This document shows, piece after piece, positions 3,260-18,303 of a DNA stretch of 24,000 bases. Below the pieces are notes generated by a model. That model made no database searches. It saw only the letters and a list, made by a program, of their open reading frames with translations, and was not told the origin of the DNA. Origin of the DNA: Kistimonas sp. bin40 (lineage in GTDB: Bacteria > Pseudomonadota > Gammaproteobacteria > Pseudomonadales > Endozoicomonadaceae); NCBI GenBank assembly GCA_002238585.1, contig MPMQ01000001.1, forward strand, positions 117,771 to 141,770. Reading direction: 5' to 3'. Position 1 is the stretch's first letter, and every line of letters begins with the position of its first letter. Made by a program: the position numbers and the translations under genes.

Positions 3260-4600
3260 ATGACGGCAGAACCCTACGATGTCCTGATTGTGGGTGGCGG
3301 CGTGTCCGGCACAGCTCTGCTGTATCAGCTGACACGCTATACGGATATTCAGCGTATTGCCCTGCTGGAGAAGTACGACAGCTTGGCACAGGTCAATTCC
3401 AGAAGCAGCAACAACAGTCAAACCATCCACTGTGGCGATATAGAAACCAACTACAGTCTGGAAAAAGCCCTCAAGGTCCAACGCACTGCCGCCATGCTGG
3501 TGAACTACGCCCAGTCTCTTCCTGCGCAAGAGCGCGATACCATTATATTCAAGCACTCCAAAATGGTACTGGGCGTTGGTGCTCGTGAATGTCAATTTCT
3601 ACGACAGCGCTTTGATGTCTTCAGCAAGCACTACAGCGGCATGCGATTAATGGAAAAGGACCAGATTGCTGAACTGGAGCCCCAGGTCGTTGCCGGCAGG
3701 CAGGGCGCTCAGGATGAAGAGCTGGTGGCACTGGCGGTGGTGGATGAGTACACGGCGGTTGACTTCCAGACGCTGTCCGACTCTTTTGTTCGCCAGGCAA
3801 AAGCCAGCGGCCGTGACCCGGCTGTTCACATGAACACCAAGGTCGAGAAGATGAGCCAGGAAGACAACGGCCTCTACCGGGTACACACCAACCGTGGCGA
3901 TTTCGTGACCCGTAGCCTTGTTGTCAGCGCTGGCGGTCACAGCCTGCTGTTTGCGCAGCAAATGGGCTTCGGATTGAATTTCTCCTGCCTTCCGGTGGCC
4001 GGCAGTTTTTACTTTACGCCTGCTGTTCTCAAGGGCAAGGTCTACACCGTCCAGAACGACAAGCTTCCTTTCGCTGCTATCCATGGTGACCCGGACGTAT
4101 GTGTACCGGGGAAAACGCGCTTTGGTCCTACAGCTCTGCTACTGCCTATGCTGGAGCGTTACAACAGCAGCACCATCCCTGAGTTCTTCAAGGTGTTGCG
4201 TCTGGATGCTTCGGTTCTCAAAGTGCTCTGGGATTTGATGCGCATTGCTGATATTCGCAACTATATTTTCAGGAACTTTCTCCTCGAGGTACCTTTCGTG
4301 CGCCGTCTCCTGTTTTTGCGTGACGCACGCAAGATAGTCCCGGGTTTGAAACTGAGCGACATTTCCTTTGCCAAGCGTTTTGGCGGCGTGCGTCCTCAAT
4401 TGATTGACAAGGAAAACAAAAAGCTCATGCTGGGCGAGGCCCGCATAGCACCGGGACAGGGGCTGATTTTCAATATGACGCCGTCTCCGGGGGGTACCAG
4501 CTGTCTCGGCAATGCAGAGAAAGATTTGCGTGAACTGGTGGCCTTCCTGGGAGCCAAGTTTGACGAGAACAGCTTTCGCCAAGAGCTGGAAAACAGCTGA
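3260..4600 (+). CDS. FAD-dependent oxidoreductase, Mqo-like (copy 1)
   Basis: 446 aa with SD GGAGG 5 nt upstream of the ATG. Rossmann FAD motif DVLIVGGGVSGTA. The blocks SSNNSQTIHCGDIETNY, LPVAGSFYF, LPFAAIHGDPD and NMTPSPGGTSCL are ones I recall from the ~450-aa Helicobacter-type malate:quinone oxidoreductase group (recollection, not a search). The CDS call is strong; the substrate assignment is weak. Confidence 0.8.
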   Translation: MTAEPYDVLIVGGGVSGTALLYQLTRYTDIQRIALLEKYDSLAQVNSRSSNNSQTIHCGDIETNYSLEKALKVQRTAAMLVNYAQSLPAQERDTIIFKHSKMVLGVGARECQFLRQRFDVFSKHYSGMRLMEKDQIAELEPQVVAGRQGAQDEELVALAVVDEYTAVDFQTLSDSFVRQAKASGRDPAVHMNTKVEKMSQEDNGLYRVHTNRGDFVTRSLVVSAGGHSLLFAQQMGFGLNFSCLPVAGSFYFTPAVLKGKVYTVQNDKLPFAAIHGDPDVCVPGKTRFGPTALLLPMLERYNSSTIPEFFKVLRLDASVLKVLWDLMRIADIRNYIFRNFLLEVPFVRRLLFLRDARKIVPGLKLSDISFAKRFGGVRPQLIDKENKKLMLGEARIAPGQGLIFNMTPSPGGTSCLGNAEKDLRELVAFLGAKFDENSFRQELENS

Positions 4601-4853: not shown

Positions 4854-6479
4854 ATGCAAGTCTTGGGATTCGAACGCCTGATAATGGCCCTCCTTATGTT
4901 GGGACTCATTGCTGTGATGGGCTTCATTCTCTGGGATACTATCCGCCGCAGGAATTCGGGGCGACTCGCCGCATCGATTCTTTTGGCCACGCTGGGGCTG
5001 GGAGCCCTTGGCTTTGTTGTTATCCCTGCACAGCTGGAACGATCGACCGAAGAGTCGCCTCCGGGCCTCTGGCCTGCAGATCAGGCCCGGGAAAATATTG
5101 CGCACAACGCAGACGAGCGGGGTGAAGAAGCGGTCCCCTACGATGTGGTCATTGTCGGCGGAGGCGTATCGGGGACGGCCCTGCTGTACCAGTTGACGCG
5201 CTACACAGACGTTGCACGTGTTGCCCTGTTGGAGAAATACGACAGGCTGGCTCAGGTCAACTCCAGGAGCAGCAACAACAGTCAGACCATTCACTGTGGT
5301 GATATAGAAACCAACTACAGCCTGGAGAAGGCGCTCAGGGTCAAGCGCGCGGCCGCTATGCTGGTGAATTACGGTTTGGGCCTGCCGGCCGAAGAGCGTG
5401 ACGAGATTCTGTTCAAGTTCCCCAAAATGGTGCTGGGTGTCGGCGCCCGTGAGTGCGCGTTCTTGCGGCAGCGCTACGAGACATTCAGAGAACACTACAG
5501 CGGCATGCGACTGCTGGAAAAAGCCCAGATTGCTGAAGTGGAGCCTCTGGTGGTCGCCGGGCGGGAAGGAGAGCAGGACGAGGAGCTGGTCGCCCTGGCA
5601 GTGGTGGACGAGTACACGGCCGCGAATTACCAGAAGTTGTCCGACTCCTTCGTCCGCCAGGCGCAAAAGAGCGGACGGGCCCCGGCGATTCATATGGGCA
5701 CCAAGGTTGCGAAGATAGAAAAGGAAGAAAACGGCCTCTATCGTGTGCGCACCAATCGCGGTGACTTTCGCACACGCAGTCTTGTTGTCAGTGCTGGCGG
5801 GCATAGCTTGCTGTTTGCGCAACAAATGGGCCATGGACTGAATTTTTCCTGCCTTCCGGTGGCGGGCAGTTTCTACTTTGTGCCAGAAGTTCTCAGAGGA
5901 AAGGTCTACACCGTACAGAATGACAAGCTGCCCTTTGCAGCCATTCATGGTGACCCGGATGTGAGCGTGCCGGGCAAGACGCGCTTCGGCCCGACAGCCT
6001 TGCTGCTGCCCATGCTGGAGCGCTACAACAACAGTACCATCGGCGACTTTTTCCAGGTTCTGCATCTCGACTCCTCCGTCGCCGCAGTGCTCTGGGATCT
6101 GATGCGGGTCCCTGATATCCGCAACTACATTTTCAAAAATTTCATGTTTGAAATGCCGCTCATACAACGTCGCCTTTTTCTGCGCGATGCACGCAAGATA
6201 GTGCCGGGCTTACAGCTGGAAGATATCACCTTTGCCAAAGGGTTCGGTGGCATACGGCCCCAGCTGATTGACAGGGAAAAGAAGAAACTTCTACTGGGGG
6301 AAGCGCGCATCGCACCGGGAAACGGACTGATTTTCAATATGACGCCCTCTCCGGGAGGCACCAGCTGCCTGAGAAATGCAGAAAAGGACATGCGCGAACT
6401 GGTGACTTGGCTGGGTGCCAGTTTTGACCAGGAGGCCTTTCACAAAGACTTTTACCAGGAGCGGCAGCAGAGCCTGTGA
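4854..6479 (+). CDS. Fusion of a 2-TM small-membrane-protein module and an Mqo-like FAD-dependent oxidoreductase (copy 2)
   Basis: 541 aa. From PYDVVIVGGGVSGTA onward it is roughly 75-80% identical by eye to the 3260..4600 product. The first ~65 aa (two hydrophobic helices, MGFILWDTIRRRNSGR...LGLGALGFV) match the stand-alone ORF 12688..12888. No in-frame stop separates the modules, and I found no in-frame ATG or GTG close to the flavoprotein N-terminus. Confidence 0.8.
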   Translation: MQVLGFERLIMALLMLGLIAVMGFILWDTIRRRNSGRLAASILLATLGLGALGFVVIPAQLERSTEESPPGLWPADQARENIAHNADERGEEAVPYDVVIVGGGVSGTALLYQLTRYTDVARVALLEKYDRLAQVNSRSSNNSQTIHCGDIETNYSLEKALRVKRAAAMLVNYGLGLPAEERDEILFKFPKMVLGVGARECAFLRQRYETFREHYSGMRLLEKAQIAEVEPLVVAGREGEQDEELVALAVVDEYTAANYQKLSDSFVRQAQKSGRAPAIHMGTKVAKIEKEENGLYRVRTNRGDFRTRSLVVSAGGHSLLFAQQMGHGLNFSCLPVAGSFYFVPEVLRGKVYTVQNDKLPFAAIHGDPDVSVPGKTRFGPTALLLPMLERYNNSTIGDFFQVLHLDSSVAAVLWDLMRVPDIRNYIFKNFMFEMPLIQRRLFLRDARKIVPGLQLEDITFAKGFGGIRPQLIDREKKKLLLGEARIAPGNGLIFNMTPSPGGTSCLRNAEKDMRELVTWLGASFDQEAFHKDFYQERQQSL

Positions 6480-6702: not shown

Positions 6703-7014
6703 ATGTACGCAGTAATAAAAACCGGTGGCAAGCAATACCGTGTCACTGAAGGCGACACCCTGAAAGTTGAGAAGCTCAGTGCCAATGAAGGGGACACTGT
6801 CGAAATTGACCAGGTTCTGATGCTGGCTTCGGGTGAAGAGGTCGCCATTGGCACACCTTTGATCGAAGGCGCCAGGGTTAGTGCCCAGGTCGTGACACAG
6901 GGGCGTGGCAAAAAGATCAATATTGTGAAATTCAAGCGCCGCAAGCACTACCACAGGCAGGCGGGTCACCGCCAGAGTTTCACAGAGATCAAGATTACCG
7001 GCATAACGAGCTGA
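6703..7014 (+). CDS. rplU: 50S ribosomal protein L21
   Basis: [18 protein letters not shown]... is the canonical L21 N-terminus. GGAG sits 6 nt upstream of ATG 6703. The track start at 6688 adds 5 atypical residues. Confidence 0.95.
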
Positions 7015-7026
7015 TGGGAGGCCGTC

Positions 7027-7284
7027 ATGGCACATAAGAAGGCGGGTGGAAGTACCCGTAATGGTCGAGATTCAGAAAGCAAACGTCTTGGCGTCAAGCG
7101 CTTTGGTGGCCAGGCAGTGATTGCCGGCAACATTCTGGTACGCCAGCGTGGCACCCGGTTTCATGCCGGGCATAACGTTGGACTTGGGCGGGATCATACG
7201 CTCTTTGCCAAAGCCGATGGCAAGGTTGTTTTCGAAACCCGTGGACCCCTGAAAAGAAAGTTTGTCAGCGTCACCACGGACTGA
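7027..7284 (+). CDS. rpmA: 50S ribosomal protein L27
   Basis: [24 protein letters not shown]... is the canonical L27 N-terminus. SD GGGAGG lies upstream, and the gene starts 12 nt after rplU. Confidence 0.96.
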
Positions 7285-7615
7285 CACAGGCCGCAGCGCG
7301 TGCAGCCATGTTCCTGGCCAATTGAAACTGGCTTCCGGGAAGTTGGGTATCAGGGCAGGCGATGACTGGGACCGACTGGATATTCCCTGGAAAAGGCTGG
7401 CATCAATCGCGGCGGGAGCTGCCCTTGGCCGATGTGGTGCCGAGGGGTTCTCCTTGGAGTAGGCGGCCTTGCTGCCGGGGGCGAAGGCGGGAGCTGGAGA
7501 CGTAGATGACAGCCATCAGTCTCCCCTGTGTACACTCCTGAAATCGTATCGTTTCTCATTTTGCACTCTCATTGCTACAGGCGCTGCCCCAGGCCAGTCT
7601 CTGCGGGAATTGTCC

Positions 7616-8694
7616 GGTGCGTTCATGTGTTGCCAACGTCCTTTGGGCAGCCTCCTTGTCACTTCCGTTGAGACGCTGTTCGGGTGTTTTCGTGATGGAG
7701 GTCGGCCGTGAGGTTGGTTGATGAAGCGCGCATCCGGGTCGAAGCGGGTTGTGGCGCAATGGATGCATCAGTAAGCGGTGCGTTCATGCGTCGCCAATGT
7801 TCTTGTGGGCTACCCTTTGCCAGCTTCCTTGATGCGCTGTTCGGGTTCTGGCGGTCGGTCGTGAAGCGGGTTGATGAAGCGCGCATCCGGGTCGAAGCAG
7901 GTTGTGGCGCAATGGGTGCATCAGTAAGCGGTGCGTTCATGTGTCGCCAATGTTCTTGTGGGGTACCCTTTGCCAGCTTCCTTGATGCGCTGTTCGGGTG
8001 ATGGCGGTCGGTCGTGAAGCGGGTTGATGAAGCGCGCATCCGGGTCGAAGCAGGTTGTGGCGCAATGGGTGCATCAGTAAGCGGTGCGTTCATGTGTCGC
8101 CAATGTTCTTGTGGGCTACCCTTTGCCAGCTTCCTTGATGCGCTGTTCGGGTGATGGCGGTCGGTCGTGAAGCGGGTTGATGAAGCGCGCATCCGGGTCG
8201 AAGCAGGGCGTGGTGGTGATGGATGTATCAGAAAACGGTGCGTTCATAGGCTACCAATGTCCTTGCGGGGAGCCCCTTGCCACTTCCCTTGAGGTGCTGC
8301 TCGGGTGATGGCGGTCGGTCGTGAAGCGGGTTGATGAAGCGCGTATCCATGTCGAAGCAGGTCATGGCGACAGTGGATGCCTCAGCAAGAGGTGCGTTCA
8401 TGGGCTACCAATGTCCTTGTGGGGTGCCCCTTGCCACTTCCCTTGAGGTGCTGCTCGGGTGATGGAGGTCGGTTGTGAAGCGGGTTGATGAAGCGCGTAT
8501 CCTGGTCGAAGCAGGTCGTGGCGGCAGTGGATGCATCAGCAAGAGGTGCTTTCATAGGCTACCAATGTCCTTGTGGGGTGCCCCTTGCCACTTCCCTTGA
8601 GACGCTGTTCGGATGATGGAGGTCGGTCGTGAAGTTTGTTGATGAAGCTCATATCCAGGTAGAAGCAGGTCGTGGCGGCAGTGGATGCATCAGT
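7616..8694 (+). repeat. Tandem array (153/154-bp unit, 6 full copies plus 1 partial) of the obg leader and first ~22 codons
   Basis: Unit starts (GTGAAGCGGGTTGATGAAGCGCG) are at 7708, 7861, 8014, 8167, 8321 and 8475. The genuine obg GTG is at 8629, and a partial leader-only copy begins at ~7616. Homology to obg ends after codon 22 (~8694). Confidence 0.95.
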
Positions 8695-9828
8695 TTTCGT
8701 CGGGAGAAATACGCTCCCCGGGGTGGTCCTGATGGTGGAAACGGCGGCTCAGGCGGTGACATTTATTTACAAGCGGATGATGATCTCAATACTCTGGTTG
8801 ACTACCGTTACACGCGCCGCTACAGCGCAGGCCACGGGGAACAAGGCCGCGGAGGAAACTGCACCGGGGCACAAGGCAACGACCTGGTACTGCGGGTTCC
8901 GACAGGAACGGCGGTGGTTGATGAAGAAGCCGGGGAGCTGCTGGGGGACCTGACGACAGTTGGCCAAAGATTGCTGGTAGCCAAGGGAGGGCGCAATGGT
9001 GTTGGCAATCACTGTTTCAAGTCCAGCACCAACCGCACGCCTCGCACAGCAACACCAGGACAGCCCGGGCAGGTGCGTCAACTCAAGCTGGAACTGAAAG
9101 TCATTGCTGACGTTGGTCTTCTGGGCATGCCCAATGCTGGAAAATCGACGTTGATACGGGCTGTATCCCATGCCAGACCCCGCGTGGCGGACTACCCGTT
9201 TACCACTTTGTTTCCCAGTCTGGGTGTTGTGCGTGTGCAACAGCACCGCAGCTTTGTCATGGCCGACATTCCTGGATTGATCGCAGGGGCTTCGCAGGGG
9301 GCCGGTCTGGGCATCCGCTTTCTGAAGCACCTTGTTCGATGTCGCGTATTGCTGCACCTTGTTGACATAGCGCCTATGGATGGTTCTGATCCTGTCGAGG
9401 CTGCCCGCACTATTATCCAGGAGCTGGAGACTTTCAGTCATTCCCTGGCAGTGCGGGAACGTTGGCTGGTTTTGAATAAAACGGATCTTCTGCCGGAGGA
9501 TGCCTGTGTTGACAGATGCGAGCGTCTTGTTGAAGCGCTGGACTGGAAAGGCCCTGTGTACAGGATTTCAGCCGAAACCCAACAGGGCATCGCACCCTTG
9601 AGTCAGGCCATTATGACCTGGATCGAAGAGCGTCGTTCCATGGAGAACGAGGACCCTGAGATGGCGCACACGGAAGCCCTCCAGCAAAAAACCATGGAGG
9701 AAGAGGCACGCTTGCGTATCCAGGACTACAATGCCAAGCGCAAGGCAGCCCGAGCAGCACAAGCTGAGGAGCCGTGTACGCAGGAGCAGGATGAGGCGTC
9801 TGACACCCAGGTGCTCTATGTGCCCTGA
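8629..9828 (+). CDS. obg: GTPase Obg/CgtA
   Basis: [44 protein letters not shown] (Obg fold), then G1 GMPNAGKST and [14 protein letters not shown], and an acidic C-terminal tail. GTG start with GGAGG 8 nt upstream. Conserved rplU-rpmA-obg order. Confidence 0.96.
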
Positions 9829-10965
9829 GCTGTTATGGCAGCCTGGCGGGCTCGTGTGGGGGGCGTGACAGGCCCTCTGGCACAGACGCCGTGACGCAGT
9901 ACAGCCTCATGAGCTGGTCAAAGTTCGGAGTGCGCTGCCTCCATGCTCACGGCATCACCAATGAAAGCCGCCCCTTGGGTGTGAGATGTCCCCTTGGCAC
10001 TCCGGTGTTCTACACGCGCTGACCATAGCTGACTGGCGGTTGTCGTGTGGTTTTTCGTCACAGGGTGCCTTGGAAAAGACGCTGTGACGCAGTACAGCCT
10101 CATGAGCTGGTCAAAGTTCGGAGTGCGCTGCCTCCATACTCACGGCATCACCAATGAAAGCCGCCCCTTGGGTGTGAGATGTTTGCTTGGCACTCCGGTG
10201 TTCTACACGCGCTGACCATAGCTGACTGGCGGTTGTCGTGTGGTTTTTCGTCACAGGGTGCCTTGGGAAAAACGCTGTGATGCAGTACAGCCTCATGAGC
10301 TGGTCAAGGTCCAGAGTACGTTGCCCCACATGCTCGTGGCATCACAAATGAAAACCGCCCCTTGGGGGTGTGAAATGTTTCCCTTGGTACTCCACTGCTC
10401 TACGTGCCCTGAGCTGTTGTGGCTGACTGGCGGGCACGAGTAAGTTTTCGTTACAGGGCACTCTGGAGAAGACGGCGTGACATAGTGCTGGATCAAGGCT
10501 CAGAGTGCGTTGCCTCAACGTGTATGGCCTCACAAATGAAAGCCGCTCCTTGGGCGTGAGGTTTTTCCCTTGGAGCTCCGCTGCTCTACGTGCGCTGAAC
10601 ATGGCGGACTGGCGGTTGTCGTGTGGTTGTCGTGTGGTTGTTCGGTGCGGGGCACCCTGGAAAGGGCGCCTTGGTTGAGTACAACCCTCCAGCTGAATCA
10701 AGGTGCAAAATAGATCACCTTGCATGTTCGCGGCCTCATAAATGAAAGCCGCCCTTTGGGAGTGAGGTGTTTCCCCAGGAACTCCGTTTTTCTACGTGCG
10801 CTGAGCATGGCTGACTGGCGGTTGTCGTGTGGTTTTTCGTTGCGGGGACCCTGGAAAGGACGCTTTGGTTGAGTACAGCCCAACAGCTGAATCAAGGTTC
10901 AAAATAGACCACCTGCATGTTCGCGGTCTCATAAATGAAAGCCGCCACTTGGGTGTGAGATGTGT
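9810..10965 (+). repeat. Degenerate tandem array (~185-205-bp unit, ~6 copies) beginning inside the last codons of obg
   Basis: The marker GTGACGCAGTACAGCCTCATGAGCTGG occurs at 9891, 10084 and 10277 (period 193). More diverged copies follow to ~10965. Unit starts at ~10004, 10197, 10394, 10579 and 10784 resemble the obg terminus GGTGCTCTATGTGCCCTGAGCTGTT at 9810. Confidence 0.9.
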
Positions 10966-11482
10966 CTCTTTTCTCAATGAAAAGAGTGGGTGGCGGTATA
11001 AAAAGGCGATGCAATTGTGCAAGTTACGTGATTAGTAGGCTTCGGGGGGTAGAAGCCGCACCATAGCTGGTTAATCCTGAGCCATTGCACCCGAGGCTCA
11101 AGTGGAGTTATGTGACGATAAAAAGTTGCTTCAGAAAACGGGGCGTTTTTTATCAAAATTCATCAGCGAGCGGGGCGGCTCGAGCGGAGTTCGTACTCTT
11201 CGGAGGGGCGGGCCCCACTCCAGCTCGGACGGGCATAAACAGGATTTCAAACTGCATTTCTGTCTGCCAGGCGAGCCCGGGCGGGCCGACAGCTTGTTGA
11301 AAACTGTTTTTCAGCCTTGACCCTGTTGCCCTTGGCTGTAACAATCCGGCAGCCTTGGCGCGTGGCTTGAGTGGAACTGTCAAGTTCTACGGTAAGCTGT
11401 CCGCCCCGGGATGACCGGGGAACGGGCCTGGGCTCTTTTAACATAAAGTTTTTTCACCTGCCAACTTGGAGGAAATATCCAG

Positions 11483-11752
11483 ATGGCCAACTCTCCTTCT
11501 GCCAGAAAGCGTGCCCGCACACAGGAAAAGCGGCGGAAACACAATGTCAGCCAACGCTCTATGGTTCGCACTTACATAAAGAAAGTTCTGGCTGCTGTTG
11601 CCACCGGCAATGCTGAGGAAGCCCGCACAGCCTATGCTGCGGCAGTACCCGTGGTGGATCGCATGGCTGACAAGGGCCTGATTCACAAGAACAAGGCTGC
11701 ACGCCACAAGAGCCGACTCAATGCACGTGTCAAGGCGTTGGCTACGGCCTGA
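11483..11752 (+). CDS. rpsT: 30S ribosomal protein S20
   Basis: [35 protein letters not shown]... is canonical S20. SD GGAGG lies upstream. Confidence 0.95.
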
Positions 11753-11795
11753 TACGACCTGATACGGCCTGAGTAGCCTGCATCCTGTTGTCTCC

Positions 11796-11975
11796 TGGTG
11801 GTGCCCCGCGTGCGCACCGAAGCGAAGATGGGAAAGTTACGGATGCTGAGGCTGGTTGGTGGTGCTTGGGCTCGCGTCGGAGCGAGGACAAAAAAGTCGT
11901 GAATGCTGGGGCAGATTGATGGTGCCTGGCTGCGCTCCGGGGCTGTAGAGCCATCCGGCACGCCCTCTGTGAACC
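11796..11975 (+). repeat. Degenerate ~60-bp tandem repeat (about 3 copies) downstream of rpsT
   Basis: TGGTGGTGC / TGGTGGTGC / TGATGGTGC unit starts at 11796, 11857 and 11917, with shared ...GCG..CGGAGCGA...GATGCTG.GGC... blocks. Divergence is high. Confidence 0.5.
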
Positions 11976-12275
11976 AGCGTGGTCCGTACCCCCTTGCAGG
12001 AAACGGGGATGCAATGTCGTTGCTATACTCCCCCGTTCTGTGAGCGTGCTGGACGTCAGTTCCCTCAGTTCCCTGTGGAGCTGGTGGGGTTGCTCTGTGG
12101 TGAGGAAAGCAGAGAGAGGGGATGAAAGCGCAATCTGACGAGCAGCACTGCGGAGCCTGTTGATCGAGGGAGGACAAGCTTTACTCGCGCTATAAAGAAT
12201 AACGACCTGCTCCCGTTCTTTTGTTTCAGAGGGCGGCTATAGGCTGCAGGCTCGCCAAGGGATAGTGCCCAGACC

Positions 12276-12335
12276 CAGAATATCCAGGGGCAGAATATCC
12301 AGGGGCAGAATATCCAGGGGCAGAATATCCAGAGA
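12276..12335. repeat. 15-bp tandem repeat CAGAATATCCAGGGG x4
   Basis: Units at 12276, 12291, 12306 and 12321 (the last imperfect), flanked on both sides by GATAGTGCCC. Confidence 0.9.
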
Positions 12336-12340
12336 TAGTG

Positions 12341-12366
12341 CCCGGGATACCCGGGATACCCGGAAT
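12341..12366. repeat. 9-bp tandem repeat CCCGGGATA x2.5
   Basis: The sequence CCCGGGATACCCGGGATACCCGGA, read directly. Confidence 0.75.
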
Positions 12367-12526
12367 AAATAATAGTGCCCAGCATAAAGGGAACCCCGGG
12401 CATGTCGCTGACCGCAGCAGTCAGCGTGTGAGCTTTCACAGCTGGATGGCCGCGCGCAGACCAGGTGGTGTAGTCCGCTGGGTCGTCTGTGCGGCACTGG
12501 AAAGATGCAGCCCCGACCAGGAAGCG

Positions 12527-12589
12527 GCATACAGCGCATACAGCGCATACAGCGCATACAGCGCATACAGCGCATACAGCGCATACAGG
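12527..12589. repeat. 9-bp tandem repeat GCATACAGC x7
   Basis: Seven head-to-tail units from 12527 (the last is GCATACAGG), about 100 bp upstream of the small membrane-protein gene. Confidence 0.95.
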
Positions 12590-12687
12590 TGGCCGCTATG
12601 TGAGGACAATTCACCGGGGCCTGGCTCAGTGCCTTGCTGTGACAGGCATGTACGTACTCTCACCGTTATGTCCAGGAGATCTGAGTA

Positions 12688-12888
12688 GTGGATGCTATGG
12701 AATTTGAGCACTTGATGCTGAGTATTCTTTTGCCGACCCTGATCATTGCTATGGGGTTCATCGTCTGGGACATTGCGCGTCGCAGCAAAGCCGGTCGATT
12801 TGGGACATGGATTCTGTTTGGCACTCTGGGGCTGGGTGTTCTGGGTTTTGTGATCAAGGAGCTGATAGCTCTCAGCCTGAAGGTGTAG
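12688..12888 (+). CDS. Small 2-TM membrane protein (DUF2788-like by recollection)
   Basis: 66 aa with a GTG start and AGGAG 9 nt upstream (alternative ATG at 12697). Two hydrophobic helices. About 50% identical by eye to the N-terminal module of the 4854..6479 product (MGFIVWDIARRSKAGRFG...LGLGVLGFV vs MGFILWDTIRRRNSGRLA...LGLGALGFV), which supports it as a real gene. Confidence 0.65.
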   Translation: MDAMEFEHLMLSILLPTLIIAMGFIVWDIARRSKAGRFGTWILFGTLGLGVLGFVIKELIALSLKV

Positions 12889-13344
12889 GGGCGGTCCTCG
12901 TGCCAGGAAGCAGGATCTGACGGGAATGGGGGCACAGCAGGCTCTCTTAAGGTCAGGGTGCTTTGTCTCGTGCAGTCCTGTTCGGGATGTATTCCCTGTG
13001 GCCCTGTGCCAACCCCATCCTGTTTGTGTTGCCGGAGCGCGGCGCGAGCTTTTCGCAGCAAGAGAGGGGCATGTCCGTTCAGTGTGAAAAAGCAGCAGAA
13101 TAGTCAGGCTGTTGCCGTGCTCCATAGCACATGCCCCATGCCCCATGCTGGAGCGGGGACTGTGTAAAGTGAGTGCCTGGCAGAGCCGGGCAATCATGTG
13201 GGCAGCTCCCTTTGTGACAAGGTGTCCTTGGAGGGATGCGTCTTCAAGCAGATCTTTTTCGAAGCGGTGCGCTTGGATTGAGATCCCAACTTGCTGTTCT
13301 AACTGATGTTCCAGGCGGGTCTTATGCTGCGCCGCCATGCGTGC

Positions 13345-14128
13345 GGCCTCGCATTCATTCGTTACCCTTCCGTTTCCTGCTCCGTCACTCCCGCGCCCTT
13401 CTCGTGATTCCTCGCTCCTTATCCTTCCCGCGCCTCCCGTCATTCCCGCGAAGGCGGGAATCCATACTGTACCTCCGTCCTTACAGCTCCACCTTCATTG
13501 GTACTCCCCCTTCGCCCCCTGTCATTCCTGCGCTCCCCGTCATTCCTGCGCTCCCCGTCATTCCCGCGCCCTTCTCGTGATTCCTCGCTCCTTATCCTTC
13601 CCGCGCCTCCCGTCATTCCCGCGAAGGCGGGAATCCATACTGTACCTCCGTCCTTACAGCTCCACCTTCATTGGTACTCCCCCCTCGCCCCCTGTCATTC
13701 CTGCGCTCCCCGTCATTCCCGCGCCCTTCTCGTGATTCCTCGCTCCTTATCCTTCCCGCGCCCCCCGTCATTCCCGCGAAGGCGGAAATCCATACTGTAC
13801 CTCCGTCCTTACAGCTCCACCTTCATTGGTACTCCCCCTTCGCCCCCTGTCATTCCTGCGCTCCCCGTCACTCCCGCGCCCTTCTCGTTATTCCTCGCTC
13901 CTCATCATTCCCGCGAAGGCGGAAATCCATACTGTACCTCCGTCCTTACAGCTCCACCTTCATTGGTACTCCCCCTCCGCCCCCTGTCATTCCTGCGCTC
14001 TCCGTCATTTCCGCGAAGGCGGGAATCCATACTGCACCTCCGTCCGTACAGCCTCACCTTCATTCGTCATCCCTTGCGCTCCCCGTCGTTTCTGCGTCTC
14101 CCGTCATTCCCGCGAAGGTTGGAATTGA
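13345..14128. repeat. Mosaic tandem-repeat region built around a 20-bp palindrome ATTCCCGCGAAGGCGGGAAT
   Basis: Palindrome copies are at 13442, 13615, 13770, 13907, 14007 and 14106 (spacings 173, 155, 137, 100, 99 bp). They are interleaved with reused modules (TACCTCCGTCCTTACAGCTCCACCTTCATTGGTACTCCCCC; 15-bp CCGTCATTCCTGCGCTC sub-repeats; CGCGCCCTTCTCGTGATTCCTCGCTCCTTATCCTTCC). Confidence 0.92.
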
Positions 14129-14748
14129 CCTGGTGCGCGGCAAGCCCCGTCCTTCAGGGCGGGGAAGGATAGCGCGCCTAATCTCACTGGCATTATTCGT
14201 AGACCTGACGTATGCCCCATGGCTCAAGGGCGGGACACGCCCGGCTCGCCCGTGAAGTGAGCGGTGAGGTAATGCCGCCAGCAGCAGGAACCCGCCGAAG
14301 CGACTCACAGGCGGCAGCGTGAAGCTGTCACCTGTGAGCGCAGCAGGAATCCCCGTCCTTCAGGGCGGAGAGGATGTCAACCACTTGATAGCCATCTGTC
14401 TTCGGCGGGGCTTGTCTTCAAGGTGACTTGTTTGACCGAGACGCGCCTGGATTGAGAACTCAGCTGCCGTTCTACTCGGCTCAACAGTTTCGGGCATTCA
14501 AATGACAGGATGTGTTCGGTGCAAGGAAAGCTGGCGCAGAGTGAGCCAGCACAACTGAATACAATCGCGAGGAGCCGGCTTCTGATGGCGGATTGCTCCC
14601 TCTGGTGCACTGTAAAAGCTCAAAGCCGTCGGACCCTGCTGGATGTCTTCCCGGAAAACGGTGAGGCAAAGACGCCCCGGGCCAGTGTTGCCTGGGCGCA
14701 TTTCGAGGCAGAACTGTGCACCGCAAGCGCGATGCCCAGTCCCCGTCC

Positions 14749-15582
14749 TTACACTGCGACGGGCGCCTTTATCGCCGCATGGGACTGATAGTCCTGCAGC
14801 GTGAAATCGGCAGCAGTAAAGTCGAGCAGCTCGTGTATTGCCGGGTTAAGTTCCATCCGTGGCAGTGGCAGGGGAGTGCGCGACAGTTGCTCCCGCGCTT
14901 GCTCCATGTGATTACTGTACAGATGCGTGTCGCCCAGACTGTGCACCAGCTCTCCCGGTTGCAGCTTGCAGACCTGCGCCAGCATCAGCGTCAAGAGCGC
15001 ATAGCTGGCGATGTTGAAAGGCAACCCCAGAAACACATCTGCGCTGCGTTGATACAACTGGCAGGACAACCGCCCTTCGGCCACATAAAACTGAAACAGG
15101 CAGTGACAGGGGGCCAGCGCCTGACGTCCCCGGGCCGCATTTTCCTGTGGGCTGAGAGCCGGGTCCGGAAGGACCGTCGGATTCCAGGAGGAAACGACCA
15201 GGCGACGCGAATCAGGCTGGGTCCTGATGTTGTGCACCAGCTCTGTTATCTGGTCGACCATGGTGCCTTCCGGTCCCTCCCAATGACGCCACTGGGTGCC
15301 GTAGACGGGGCCCAGGTCGCCCTCCTGTGTTGCCCACTCATTCCAGATAGAAACCCCCTGTTCACGCAGACTGGTGATATTGGTCTCGCCACGCAGGAAC
15401 CAGAGCAACTCGTGAATAATCGAGCGCAGATGACAGCGCTTGGTCGTCACCAGCGGAAACCCCTGAGCCAGATCAAATCGCATCTGGTAACCGAAAATGC
15501 TCCGGGTACCCGTTCCTGTTCGATCGTTCTTGTCTACGCCCCGATCCATGACCTGGCGCATCAGTTCCAGATACTGTTTCAT
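14749..15582 (-). CDS. thyA: Thymidylate synthase ThyA
   Basis: [38 protein letters not shown]... with active-site block [12 protein letters not shown] and a C-terminal ...[13 protein letters not shown] at 15582 overlaps the lgt stop (TGATG). Confidence 0.96.
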
Positions 15583-16406: not shown

Positions 16407-17257
16407 CTGTGCACCTCGTAACCTGGTTCTGTATCCGGCATGTAGATGCCTGCAAGAAACGTCAGTCCCACGCCGAACAGGAGAGCGATAAACAGAAACC
16501 GCAGGACGGGGAGAGGACAGCGATGCGCCAGCCAGGCGCCGAGTCTGGCGCAGGGCGTGCTCATCAGGGTCACTCCGAAAAACGCCGGCCAGTATATCAG
16601 TCCTGCCGGGAGCGGGAACAGCCCGGTGCCCATGCAGCCGCCAGCGTATTTTGCCTGCAGAATATGGGTGACAGTCGCCAGCAGCGCCACCGGTAACACG
16701 CAGGCTGCCGCAGTACCAACAGCCTGGCGTATAGAGACGCCCATTCGACTGAGAAAAGGGACCATCATCATGCCACCGCCCACACCCAGAACGGCAGAAA
16801 GGCAGCCAATAATGGCACCGCCCACACGCAGTATCCATGCAGAAGGGGGGGGGCGGGGGAGAGCGGTACTGCCTTTGCCATAGCCACCGGTGGCAAGGGA
16901 CAGGCCGAAGACAATGGCGGCACCGCCAAACAGCGCCTGCAGCGTGGAGGCATGCAAGCGTACCGTGATCAGGGCACCCAGCGCGGATCCCAGCATGACG
17001 GCGGGCGCCAGCTGGCGAAACAGAGCCCAGCTCAGGGTCTTGCCGCGCTGGTGTCCCAGGATAGAGCTGATGGCTGTAGGAATCATGCAGGCCAGGGAGG
17101 TGCCCACGGCCAGGTGTGTTGCCGTGTCAGGCGACAAGCCCTTCAGGGAAAATTGAAGCACCAGAGTGGGCACCACGACAAGGCCGCCGCCGATTCCGAA
17201 CAGGCCTGCCAGAATGCCTACCACAGCACCTGCTGCCAGATAACTTGCAAATTCCAC
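16403..17257 (-). CDS. TauE/SafE (TSUP, DUF81) family membrane transporter
   Basis: Polytopic membrane protein with the duplicated glycine-rich motifs LFGIGGGLVVVP and VLGVGGGMMMVP. The start is uncertain: GTG 17257 is preferred because the track start at 17404 would translate a 13-bp (non-triplet) repeat. TTG 17266 is an alternative. Confidence 0.8.
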   Translation of the reverse strand: MEFASYLAAGAVVGILAGLFGIGGGLVVVPTLVLQFSLKGLSPDTATHLAVGTSLACMIPTAISSILGHQRGKTLSWALFRQLAPAVMLGSALGALITVRLHASTLQALFGGAAIVFGLSLATGGYGKGSTALPRPPPSAWILRVGGAIIGCLSAVLGVGGGMMMVPFLSRMGVSIRQAVGTAAACVLPVALLATVTHILQAKYAGGCMGTGLFPLPAGLIYWPAFFGVTLMSTPCARLGAWLAHRCPLPVLRFLFIALLFGVGLTFLAGIYMPDTEPGYEVHR

Positions 17258-17434: not shown

Positions 17435-18223
17435 ATGTGCCTGATCGCCTTTCGCTGGGATCCTGCAAGCGAGCATCCGCTGATCATGGGGGCGAACCGC
17501 GATGAATTCTATCAGCGCCCTGCCCAAAAAGCCCACTTCTGGCACGATCATCCTGAGTTGTTCGGGGGAAGGGATCTCCAGGCAGGGGGCACCTGGCTGG
17601 CCATCAGCACCCGCGGACGCCTGGCAGCGCTGACCAACTACCGGGAGCCGGGTAGTGGCGGTGAACGCTCGCGTGGCGAACTGGTGCACCATTTTCTGAT
17701 CGGGCACATGTCTGCCGCTGACTATCTGCAGGAGCTTGAGTCTTGTCAGCAGTTGTATGCGGGCTTCAATCTGCTGCTGGGTGATGCTTCCGGGCTCTGG
17801 TATTTTTCGAATCGTGCAGCGCACATACGTTCCTTGTCGCCAGGTGTGTATGGGCTATGTAACGGCTTGCTGGATACGCCCTGGCCCAAGCTGGTGTCTC
17901 TGAAGAAAGCCCTGCACCACACACTGGATGCCGGCCTGAGCGTCCCGGAGGATATTCTTCCCTTGTTGCACGACAGTGCATGTCCGGAGATCGATGATCT
18001 GCCGGATACAGGTGTGGGTCTGGAGCGGGAAAAAATGCTGGCTCCCTGTTTCATTCGTTCCTCCCACTACGGCACCCGTAATTGTCTGGGCCTGATGATT
18101 GGTGCGCAAGGCCATGTGCACTGGTACGAGCAATACTACGGACCGCAAGGACAGGCAGAAGGACAAATCCGGCAGCAGCTGTCTATCGCGCCGGTCTGGC
18201 CAAGGGGGCCGGAGCTTTCATAG
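17435..18223 (+). CDS. NRDE-family protein (DUF833 / TANGO2-like)
   Basis: MCLIAFRW... N-terminal Cys, the eponymous motif GANRDEFYQRP, and GGTWLAIS. SD AAGGAG lies 8 nt upstream. Confidence 0.85.
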   Translation: MCLIAFRWDPASEHPLIMGANRDEFYQRPAQKAHFWHDHPELFGGRDLQAGGTWLAISTRGRLAALTNYREPGSGGERSRGELVHHFLIGHMSAADYLQELESCQQLYAGFNLLLGDASGLWYFSNRAAHIRSLSPGVYGLCNGLLDTPWPKLVSLKKALHHTLDAGLSVPEDILPLLHDSACPEIDDLPDTGVGLEREKMLAPCFIRSSHYGTRNCLGLMIGAQGHVHWYEQYYGPQGQAEGQIRQQLSIAPVWPRGPELS

Positions 18224-18303
18224 GGCGAACTTTTCGTTGTGACAAGGGTCCACATCTTCATGGAGGTGTTTTACGGATCTGGAATGACAACGGAGGTGCG
18301 TCA

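Follow-up and report, generated by a model that had tools for sequence, protein, structure and literature searches.

The essential gene obg (cgtA) of Kistimonas sp. bin40 is flanked by tandem arrays built from its own two ends. Its start region is present in six extra upstream copies, a seventh copy being the real start of the intact gene, and its stop region recurs downstream. Both arrays lie in the 24,000-nucleotide (nt) stretch analyzed here, referred to as the window (assembly GCA_002238585.1, contig MPMQ01000001.1, positions 117,771 to 141,770 of the forward strand). The upstream array is probably a lineage-specific, locally generated minisatellite and not a purpose-built translational device, and the lineage is most likely prone to amplifying non-coding segments of ~150-190 bp. 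The array belongs with the long-period intergenic tandem arrays of host-associated bacteria, of the type seen in Ehrlichia ruminantium and Wolbachia, and its unusual feature is that both ends of an essential gene have been captured, with the initiation region reiterated six-fold. The locus is laid out as follows, all features being on the plus strand:

7285-7614: unique part of the rpmA-obg spacer, 330 nt, with no unit copy in the profile search and no promoter or terminator in the scan
7615-7707: first leader copy (L1), with which the array begins on the left; it has 8 additional nt (TGTTTTCG) and the Shine-Dalgarno (SD) element GGAGG
7708-7860: unit A, 153 nt, consisting of a GTG, the obg-like 5′ part with a 1-nt deletion and then leader, with a strong upstream SD
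7861-8166: units B (7861-8013) and B′ (8014-8166), 153 nt each, with a frameshifted Obg-like start and the weak SD GGCGG
8167-8628: units C (8167-8320), D (8321-8474) and E (8475-8628), 154 nt each
8629-9828: genuine obg/cgtA, 399 amino acids (aa), GTG start, Pfam GTP1_OBG (PF01018) and MMR_HSR1 (PF01926)
9809-10975: 3′ array, six copies of ~193 nt, each made of the five C-terminal obg codons with the TGA plus ~174 nt of trailer, delimited by alignment and profile search

Seven head-to-tail copies of a 153- or 154-nt segment fill positions 7615-8694, the segment comprising ~88 nt of obg leader with its SD element, the GTG and the first 22 obg codons. Tandem Repeats Finder places the array at 7692-8694 with a period of 154, 6.5 copies, 90% matches, 0% indels and a score of 1348. 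A search with a profile of the unit yields copies starting at 7615, 7774, 7927, 8080, 8234, 8388 and 8542 (each E <= 1e-42) and no further copy of the 154-nt unit in the whole window, which confirms the six-fold reiteration reported in a preliminary description of this DNA and adds the real start as the seventh copy. The GTGs stand at 7708, 7861, 8014, 8167, 8321, 8475 and, for the genuine gene, 8629, with spacings of 153, 153, 153, 154, 154 and 154 nt. The array occupies the distal 1014 nt of the 1344-nt rpmA-obg spacer (7285-8628) and extends over the first 66 nt of obg (8629-8694), and the last ~19 nt of the gene (9809-9828) open the 3′ array. Divergence among the upstream units is 1-20%, and the two subfamilies recognized earlier (7708-8166 and 8167-8628) are evident: copies 7861 and 8014 differ by 1 nt and copy 7708 from either by 8-9 nt, and copies 8167, 8321 and 8475 are 12-20 nt apart from one another and 23-31 nt from the first subfamily. 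Every unit has the junction of obg-like part and leader (…ATCAG-NAAR-MGGTGC…). The whole 154-nt unit repeats without unique spacers, so the array is not a clustered regularly interspaced short palindromic repeat (CRISPR) locus. At the unit junction (7755-7785 and the equivalent positions; …ATGGATGCATCAG TAAGC GGTGCGTTCAT…) a 10-pair stem with seven Watson-Crick and three G-U pairs is possible, and the junction segments pair to close the whole unit in five of the seven single-unit folds; this imperfect inverted repeat could have favored the initial duplication.

The 3′ array is recovered by its own profile as six matches (E <= 1e-48), of which the first is the genuine obg end, and the stop region is thus present five extra times downstream. 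Its copies read VLYVP*, VFYTR*, LLYVP*, LLYVR* and FFYVR*, where VLYVP is the ancestral Obg sequence in relatives and V[FLV]YVP* their conserved C-terminus. No initiation signals were found in this array, and a comparison of the 154-nt 5′ unit with the ~193-nt 3′ unit for a common element revealed no similarity. One further assembly (L003) has one 3′ unit fewer. Two more long-period arrays lie nearby, the second of them on sequence L093, ~9 kb past the right end of the window:

13382-14116: third array, units of 137-173 nt, ~5 copies, 3.4 kb further on
L093, 15388-16456: fourth array, 180 nt x 5.9 copies

The fourth array runs exactly to the stop codon (plus-strand TCA, 16463-16465) of a minus-strand beta-carbonic anhydrase gene. 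Four long-period arrays with units of 137-193 nt are therefore present in ~55 kb of this genome (the window, L089 and L093 compared), and they are mutually unrelated and each confined to its own locus. As an array at the obg stop codon and others close by carry no initiation signals, array formation needs no translational rationale.

The plus strand of the third array is C-rich, with a GC skew of -0.5. The array contains sub-repeats of 18 nt (CCCGCGCTCCCCGTCATT) and a hairpin resembling repetitive extragenic palindromic elements (TTCCCGCGAAGGCGGGAA), and its length differs by ~330 nt between the window and assembly L001. An open reading frame (ORF) of 224 aa (202 aa in the public call) runs across it, matches no Pfam family and is probably spurious.

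The pseudo-starts of the upstream array show decay, three being frameshifted, four having a weakened SD and Phe3 and His8 being replaced. Comparison of all seven SD elements bears out the distribution given before, with GGAGG in front of 7708, 8475 and 8629 and GGCGG in front of 7861, 8014, 8167 and 8321, and the SD-anti-SD duplex amounts to -5.5 kcal/mol in the GGCGG copies versus -10.0 kcal/mol in those with GGAGG. The ~22 Obg-like codons ascribed to each unit are found in the 154-nt units; in the 153-nt units (7708, 7861 and 8014) the 1-nt deletion shifts the Obg-like frame after codon 16, leaving ~16 codons. The changes F3R/L, H8R, Q10R/H/L and R15C/H are non-conservative, and positions 10, 15, 17, 18, 21 and 22 also vary non-conservatively among the pseudo-starts. 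Phe3 and His8 are common to obg and the six closest relatives examined, and the pseudo-starts carry Arg or Leu and Arg, respectively, in their place.

The upstream ORFs (uORFs) that begin at these GTGs are essentially as described previously. Copy 8167 encodes MKRVDEARIRVEAGRGGDGCI..., and both this peptide, with its Obg-like N-terminus, and that of the genuine obg had been quoted exactly. The uORFs at 8167, 8321 and 8475 are 41 aa long and stop 28 nt ahead of the next GTG, and those at 8014 and from the in-frame GTG at 7861 are 46 aa each and stop 12 nt ahead of it, in agreement with the 41-46 codons and the terminal TGA noted earlier. Copy 7708 does lack the TGA (GGGTTCTGG where the others have GGGTGATGG) and reads through to give the 97-aa ORF at 7708-8001. 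The stop of the last uORF, in unit E, is at 8598-8600, 28 nt 5′ of the obg GTG, and no ORF of at least 20 aa ends at the GTGA of 8629.

The absence of arrays in relatives identifies them as a derived feature of this lineage. The product of obg, named Obg family GTPase CgtA [Kistimonas sp.], is a full-length Obg/CgtA and aligns with Endozoicomonadaceae Obg at 68-71% identity over most or all of its length, both termini included (MKFVDEAHI at the N-terminus and V[FLV]YVP at the C-terminus are conserved). The closest Obg proteins found are those of Sansalvadorimonas, Parendozoicomonas and other Endozoicomonadaceae, where the gene has its usual context, ispB / rplU-rpmA-obg-proB. The orthologous rpmA-obg spacers, to which the preliminary description had pointed as a check, measure 142, 286 and 221 nt, with proB downstream, and none of the three closest relatives examined has an array. 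Apart from the SD and the start codon, no part of their leaders aligns with the window. A wider survey covered 83 obg loci (80 other gammaproteobacterial species and the three close relatives, nearly 1 Mb) and revealed an array with a period of at least 60 in only two of them, neither being at obg itself. The obg start is GTG here (8629) and ATG in the three closest relatives (position 4001 of L086-L088), and since all six pseudo-starts are GTG the change from ATG to GTG predates the amplification. A scan of a genome collection with Obg listed relatives at up to 65% identity, the species itself not being among the matches listed. Two metagenome pattern scans for the pseudo-start gave 0 matches in the first case and in the second 64 single, non-tandem matches scattered over unrelated contigs.

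In the closest relative (L086, 3859-4000), the 142-nt spacer contains a clear intrinsic terminator (CCCCGCTTGCGGGGCTTTTTT) and, after it, a long, almost perfect hairpin (AAGGTCTTTTAAGGAGAG…CTCTTCTCCTAAAAGACCTT); both are absent from the window.

A by-product of amplification would account for the array in the following way. A segment of ~154 nt, from 88 nt upstream of the obg start to codon 22, would have been duplicated once by illegitimate recombination or slippage and would then have grown to seven copies via unequal homologous recombination and slipped-strand mispairing, the copies diverging (1-20%) after amplification. The same process would separately have reiterated the obg stop region and filled neighboring spacers with unrelated arrays of 137-193-nt units. 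When a duplication extends across a gene boundary, one edge of the array retains the gene intact, so that the essential obg is unharmed and the array tolerated; the intact gene would be the last copy of the 5′ array and the first copy of the 3′ array, and gene-internal duplications, unlike those spanning a boundary, would not be tolerated. The six upstream copies would then be decaying relics of an initiation region. From the sequence we infer the recombination mechanism, the neutrality of the array and its co-transcription with rplU-rpmA. Because the SD pairing of copies 7708 and 8475 is as strong as that of the real start, incidental translation is plausible; these copies probably still load ribosomes and give rise to short junk peptides if the spacer is transcribed, as a side effect, and an influence of uORF E on obg initiation could be a further plausible side effect. 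Amplification of the whole gene followed by internal deletions was considered as a joint origin of the two arrays. It predicts units in which the obg 3′ end, trailer, leader and 5′ end occur together, which is not seen; instead, the 5′ part directly abuts leader and the trailer directly abuts the 3′ part, and the model was rejected for this reason.

Comparison with independent assemblies lends some support to the suggestion in the preliminary description of ongoing slippage with variable copy number. An identical Obg protein is encoded on contigs of at least five other assemblies, four of them ENA MEGAHIT assemblies and the fifth NCBI GCA_026712775.1 (Kistimonas sp.), and a Joint Genome Institute (JGI) metagenome contig (L091) ends inside the array. 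Sequence L092 equals window positions 7285-7999 and L003 positions 7865-8184, both at 100%; L002, L003 and L004 carry identical units C, D and E together with obg, and L005 an identical unit E with obg. Most of the assemblies compared, those from ENA, are short-read MEGAHIT assemblies with k=141. In L001, one unit matches C without a difference at positions 1-145 and D likewise at 106-154 and is followed by E, exactly one 154-nt unit having been removed by a C/D recombination that runs through a 40-nt identical stretch. As contigs built from 141-mers hold only k-mers seen in reads, this recombinant appears to be a real allele. The aberrant, G-rich unit with which L004 begins, showing 21 differences, was dismissed as contig-end noise. 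Differences between samples are also found in two short variable number tandem repeats (VNTRs), both perfect and shorter than the assembly k-mer (k=141). The 15-mer CAGAATATCCAGGGG (12276-12332) has 3.8 copies here and 2.8 in four other assemblies, and the 9-mer GCATACAGC (12527-12588) has 6.9 copies here and 4.9 or 3.9 elsewhere. These differences look like real strain-level polymorphisms, usable as markers.

Several observations weigh against the array being a neutral by-product and must be set beside the evidence for it. The GTG is kept in six of the six pseudo-starts and the ~27 nt right after it are nearly invariant across copies. The uORF stops, 12-28 nt before the next start, have a geometry compatible with reinitiation. 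Third codon positions are the most variable (9 of 19 variable columns), a non-significant trend as for translated sequence, and nine of the 15 differences between copy 8167 and obg fall at third positions, with six synonymous versus five non-synonymous codons. Units diverged by up to 20% yet identical between samples indicate that the array is old and persistent, and its persistence could stem from selection rather than from weak deletion pressure; the presence of two arrays of similar copy number on either side of one essential gene could likewise be more than coincidence. Contigs break within the array in four assemblies (L003, L004, L091 and L092), and because of these breaks and the single difference between B and B′ the absolute copy number is not fixed. 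The breaks, the apparent 5′ copy numbers of 4.5, 6.0 and 6.5 across assemblies and the fact that B and B′ are unresolvable at k=141 would also be expected of an assembly artefact in which a single-copy region or strain variants were wrongly concatenated, and loss of B or B′ could indeed be a short-read collapse. Such an artefact is nevertheless extremely improbable, as diverged units in the same order and with identical sequence recur in independent assemblies: units A-E agree across samples and pipelines, the obg-like/leader junction is present in every unit and must be crossed by reads, and units lie 8-31 nt from all but their nearest neighbor, enough for unambiguous 141-mers. The preserved GTGs and the placement of the stops can be cited for a selected cis-regulatory device, along the lines of the decoy start sites that the preliminary description proposed as affecting obg translation or mRNA stability. 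Translation of the six pseudo-initiation regions would here yield a uORF ladder that delivers ribosomes to obg by termination-reinitiation, covers the 1.3-kb spacer with ribosomes, or provides decoys that lower or buffer Obg synthesis. This interpretation can also point to copies 7708 and 8475, with SD pairing of -10.0 kcal/mol and opening energies near that of the real start, to uORF E and the B-type uORFs with their stops 28 and 12 nt before the next GTG, to the surplus of variation at third codon positions, though not significant, and to repeat-borne ORFs coupled to a downstream gene in mycobacterial interspersed repetitive units (MIRUs; PMC12548453). In addition, the scan turned up no promoter on the plus strand of the spacer or of the unit, a sigma-70-like one being absent from the unit, and rpmA is not followed by a terminator, the 'terminator-like' elements of A, B and B′ being weak hairpins that lack a proper T-run and are not conserved in C-E; with neither a unit promoter nor an rpmA terminator, the spacer may belong to the rplU-rpmA-obg transcript. 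Its plus strand contains 35% G versus 24% C and is thus not C-rich, unlike typical Rho loading sites. The codon-position test on the 66-nt Obg-like part (variable columns 4/6/9 among the copies and 4/7/12 with obg included) is not significant, however, the same A-to-C change weakens four of the six SDs, three copies are frameshifted and conservation of the peptide is lacking. Most tellingly, the counterpart array at the obg stop codon and its unrelated neighbors exist without initiation signals, so that initiation cannot be their rationale. No array is found in the three closest relatives or at the other 80 obg loci, and no alternative RNA structures were detected. A selected device is accordingly judged unlikely, and the regulatory interpretation is both unnecessary and disfavoured.

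A different function for the array, as template for an RNA that is structured or titrates a protein (such as a regulator binding SD or GGA sequences, for which it would act as a sponge) or as a gene for a repeat-containing protein on either strand, is considered very unlikely. The 153-nt period of A, B and B′ is a multiple of three and so permits long ORFs on both strands, the array ORFs being:

7659-8192, minus strand, 177 aa
8228-8401, minus strand
7708-8001, plus strand, 97 aa

Publicly annotated ORFs of 57, 83 and 97 aa and the 10-pair junction stem (three G-U) possible in each unit could be cited in favor of such a function. The 154-nt units, however, break every reading frame, and no array ORF on either strand has a Pfam match above threshold, the only meaningful sub-threshold one being GTP1_OBG on the 41-aa uORF (20.6 bits versus a cut-off of 27). 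At the RNA level, Rfam returned nothing relevant at the gathering threshold for the whole window or at E <= 1 for 7200-11500, the folding of single units and of the whole array relative to dinucleotide shuffles gave no signal (z -2.0 to +1.7), and GGA occurs in only three of the seven SD elements. The 57-, 83- and 97-aa 'genes' that public gene callers place inside the array, on both strands and without family, follow the repeat period (matching annotated ORFs are L002 9600-9773, L004 1-556 and L092 10051-10342) and are probably annotation artefacts of the array. A more novel reading, either a selected ribosome-loading ladder or a dedicated process of this Endozoicomonadaceae lineage that amplifies ~150-190-nt units anchored at gene boundaries, is regarded as quite unlikely.

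Among known systems, the closest parallel to the minisatellite proposed here is found in E. ruminantium. As summarized from Collins et al. 2005 and Frutos et al. 2006 in PMC10710844 and PMC6547736, its genome is ~64% coding (PMC10710844), and tandem units of ~150 bp expand and contract in its long intergenic regions, a process that PMC6547736 calls seemingly specific to the species. Shared features are the host-associated lifestyle, ~64% coding sequence (here from the tally for the window), head-to-tail units of ~150 bp in non-coding DNA and the restriction of arrays to their locus; copy number changes between E. ruminantium isolates and may do so here. The E. ruminantium repeats reportedly also duplicated and truncated gene ends. 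The organisms differ in that E. ruminantium belongs to the Rickettsiales and has a G+C content of ~29%, whereas the present bacterium is an apparently sponge-associated member of the Gammaproteobacteria, Endozoicomonadaceae, with ~57%; the units here are diverged by up to 20%, and the arrays look older or less homogenized. To our knowledge, the capture of both ends of one essential gene and of a complete initiation region has not been described in E. ruminantium. The Wolbachia repeats VNTR-141, with up to 7.3 copies, and VNTR-105 are likewise intergenic with 105-141-bp periods, vary in copy number between close symbiont strains, contain hairpin-forming sequences within their units and have been attributed to slipped-strand mispairing; their periods are 98-99% identical within and between strains, however, and content of neighboring gene starts or stops is not reported for them (PMC3287509). 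The obg array conforms to the long-period VNTR class in its head-to-tail period in the range of ~100-200 bp, in a unit local to one place in the ~55 kb examined, and in its absence from relatives.

MIRUs resemble the array as tandem repeats just 5′ of an operon gene, whose insertion is tolerated and whose unit ORF can be coupled to the downstream gene, but they form a dispersed, apparently mobile family whose short units are inserted at start codons, the overlap being -4 (PMC12548453). The present unit, in contrast, is found at one locus and derives from the downstream gene, and its last uORF ends 28 nt before obg; neither a dispersed family (in the window and ~55 kb) nor a -4 start-codon overlap was found. 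Bacterial leader peptides provide a further comparison, being short SD-bearing ORFs in a 5′ leader with stops close enough for coupling. Those described so far occur singly, are conserved in related organisms and are linked with stalling codons or alternative RNA structures. Such features are not seen in the obg array, which therefore does not qualify as a leader peptide or attenuator.

The surroundings of the arrays are sparse in genes. The cluster upstream of the array is conserved:

6703-7284, plus strand: rplU (6703-7014) and rpmA (7027-7284) of the conserved rplU-rpmA-obg cluster, Pfam Ribosomal_L21p and Ribosomal_L27 (L001/L089 gene calls)

A tally of public gene calls gives a coding share of ~64% for the window and ~22% within 7285-14750. 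The 1.65 kb between obg and rpsT (9829-11482) are gene-free, and proB, the next gene after obg in all three relatives examined, is absent here; tblastn searches for remnants of proB, ispB and murJ in the long non-coding stretches found none. The rpsT gene is co-oriented with obg here and on the opposite strand in the relative L086. Positions 3260-4600 and 4854-6479 hold adjacent co-oriented paralogous genes for DAO/Mqo-family oxidoreductases, 78% identical over 300 nt. The second paralogue (4854-6479) has a weak match to DUF2788, and a free-standing 66-aa DUF2788 gene is located at 12688-12888. Several ORFs at 18082-22784 are without a Pfam family. At positions 9206-13148 of L093 (from about window position 22950), two large tandem F-box-like proteins of 639 and 589-656 aa are encoded; eukaryote-like F-box proteins are typical of Kistimonas, and the F-box genes and the G+C content of ~57% fit published reports (PMC12491435).

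As a minisatellite, the obg array extends the E. ruminantium-style growth of ~150-bp tandem units in long intergenic regions to a second and phylogenetically remote organism, and it shows that the two ends of an essential gene can be taken into arrays of this type without harm. Arrays of this kind break short-read contigs and yield spurious gene calls, and they could serve as strain markers for this symbiont. If the ladder of uORFs were functional after all, it would set Obg output or keep the 1.3-kb intercistronic spacer translated and protected; if amplification were anchored at gene boundaries, it would be convergent with a process thought to be specific to E. ruminantium. The obg locus also represents a construct made by nature, in which 0 to 6 graded copies of a real initiation region precede an essential gene, suited to testing the effects of uORFs and reinitiation.

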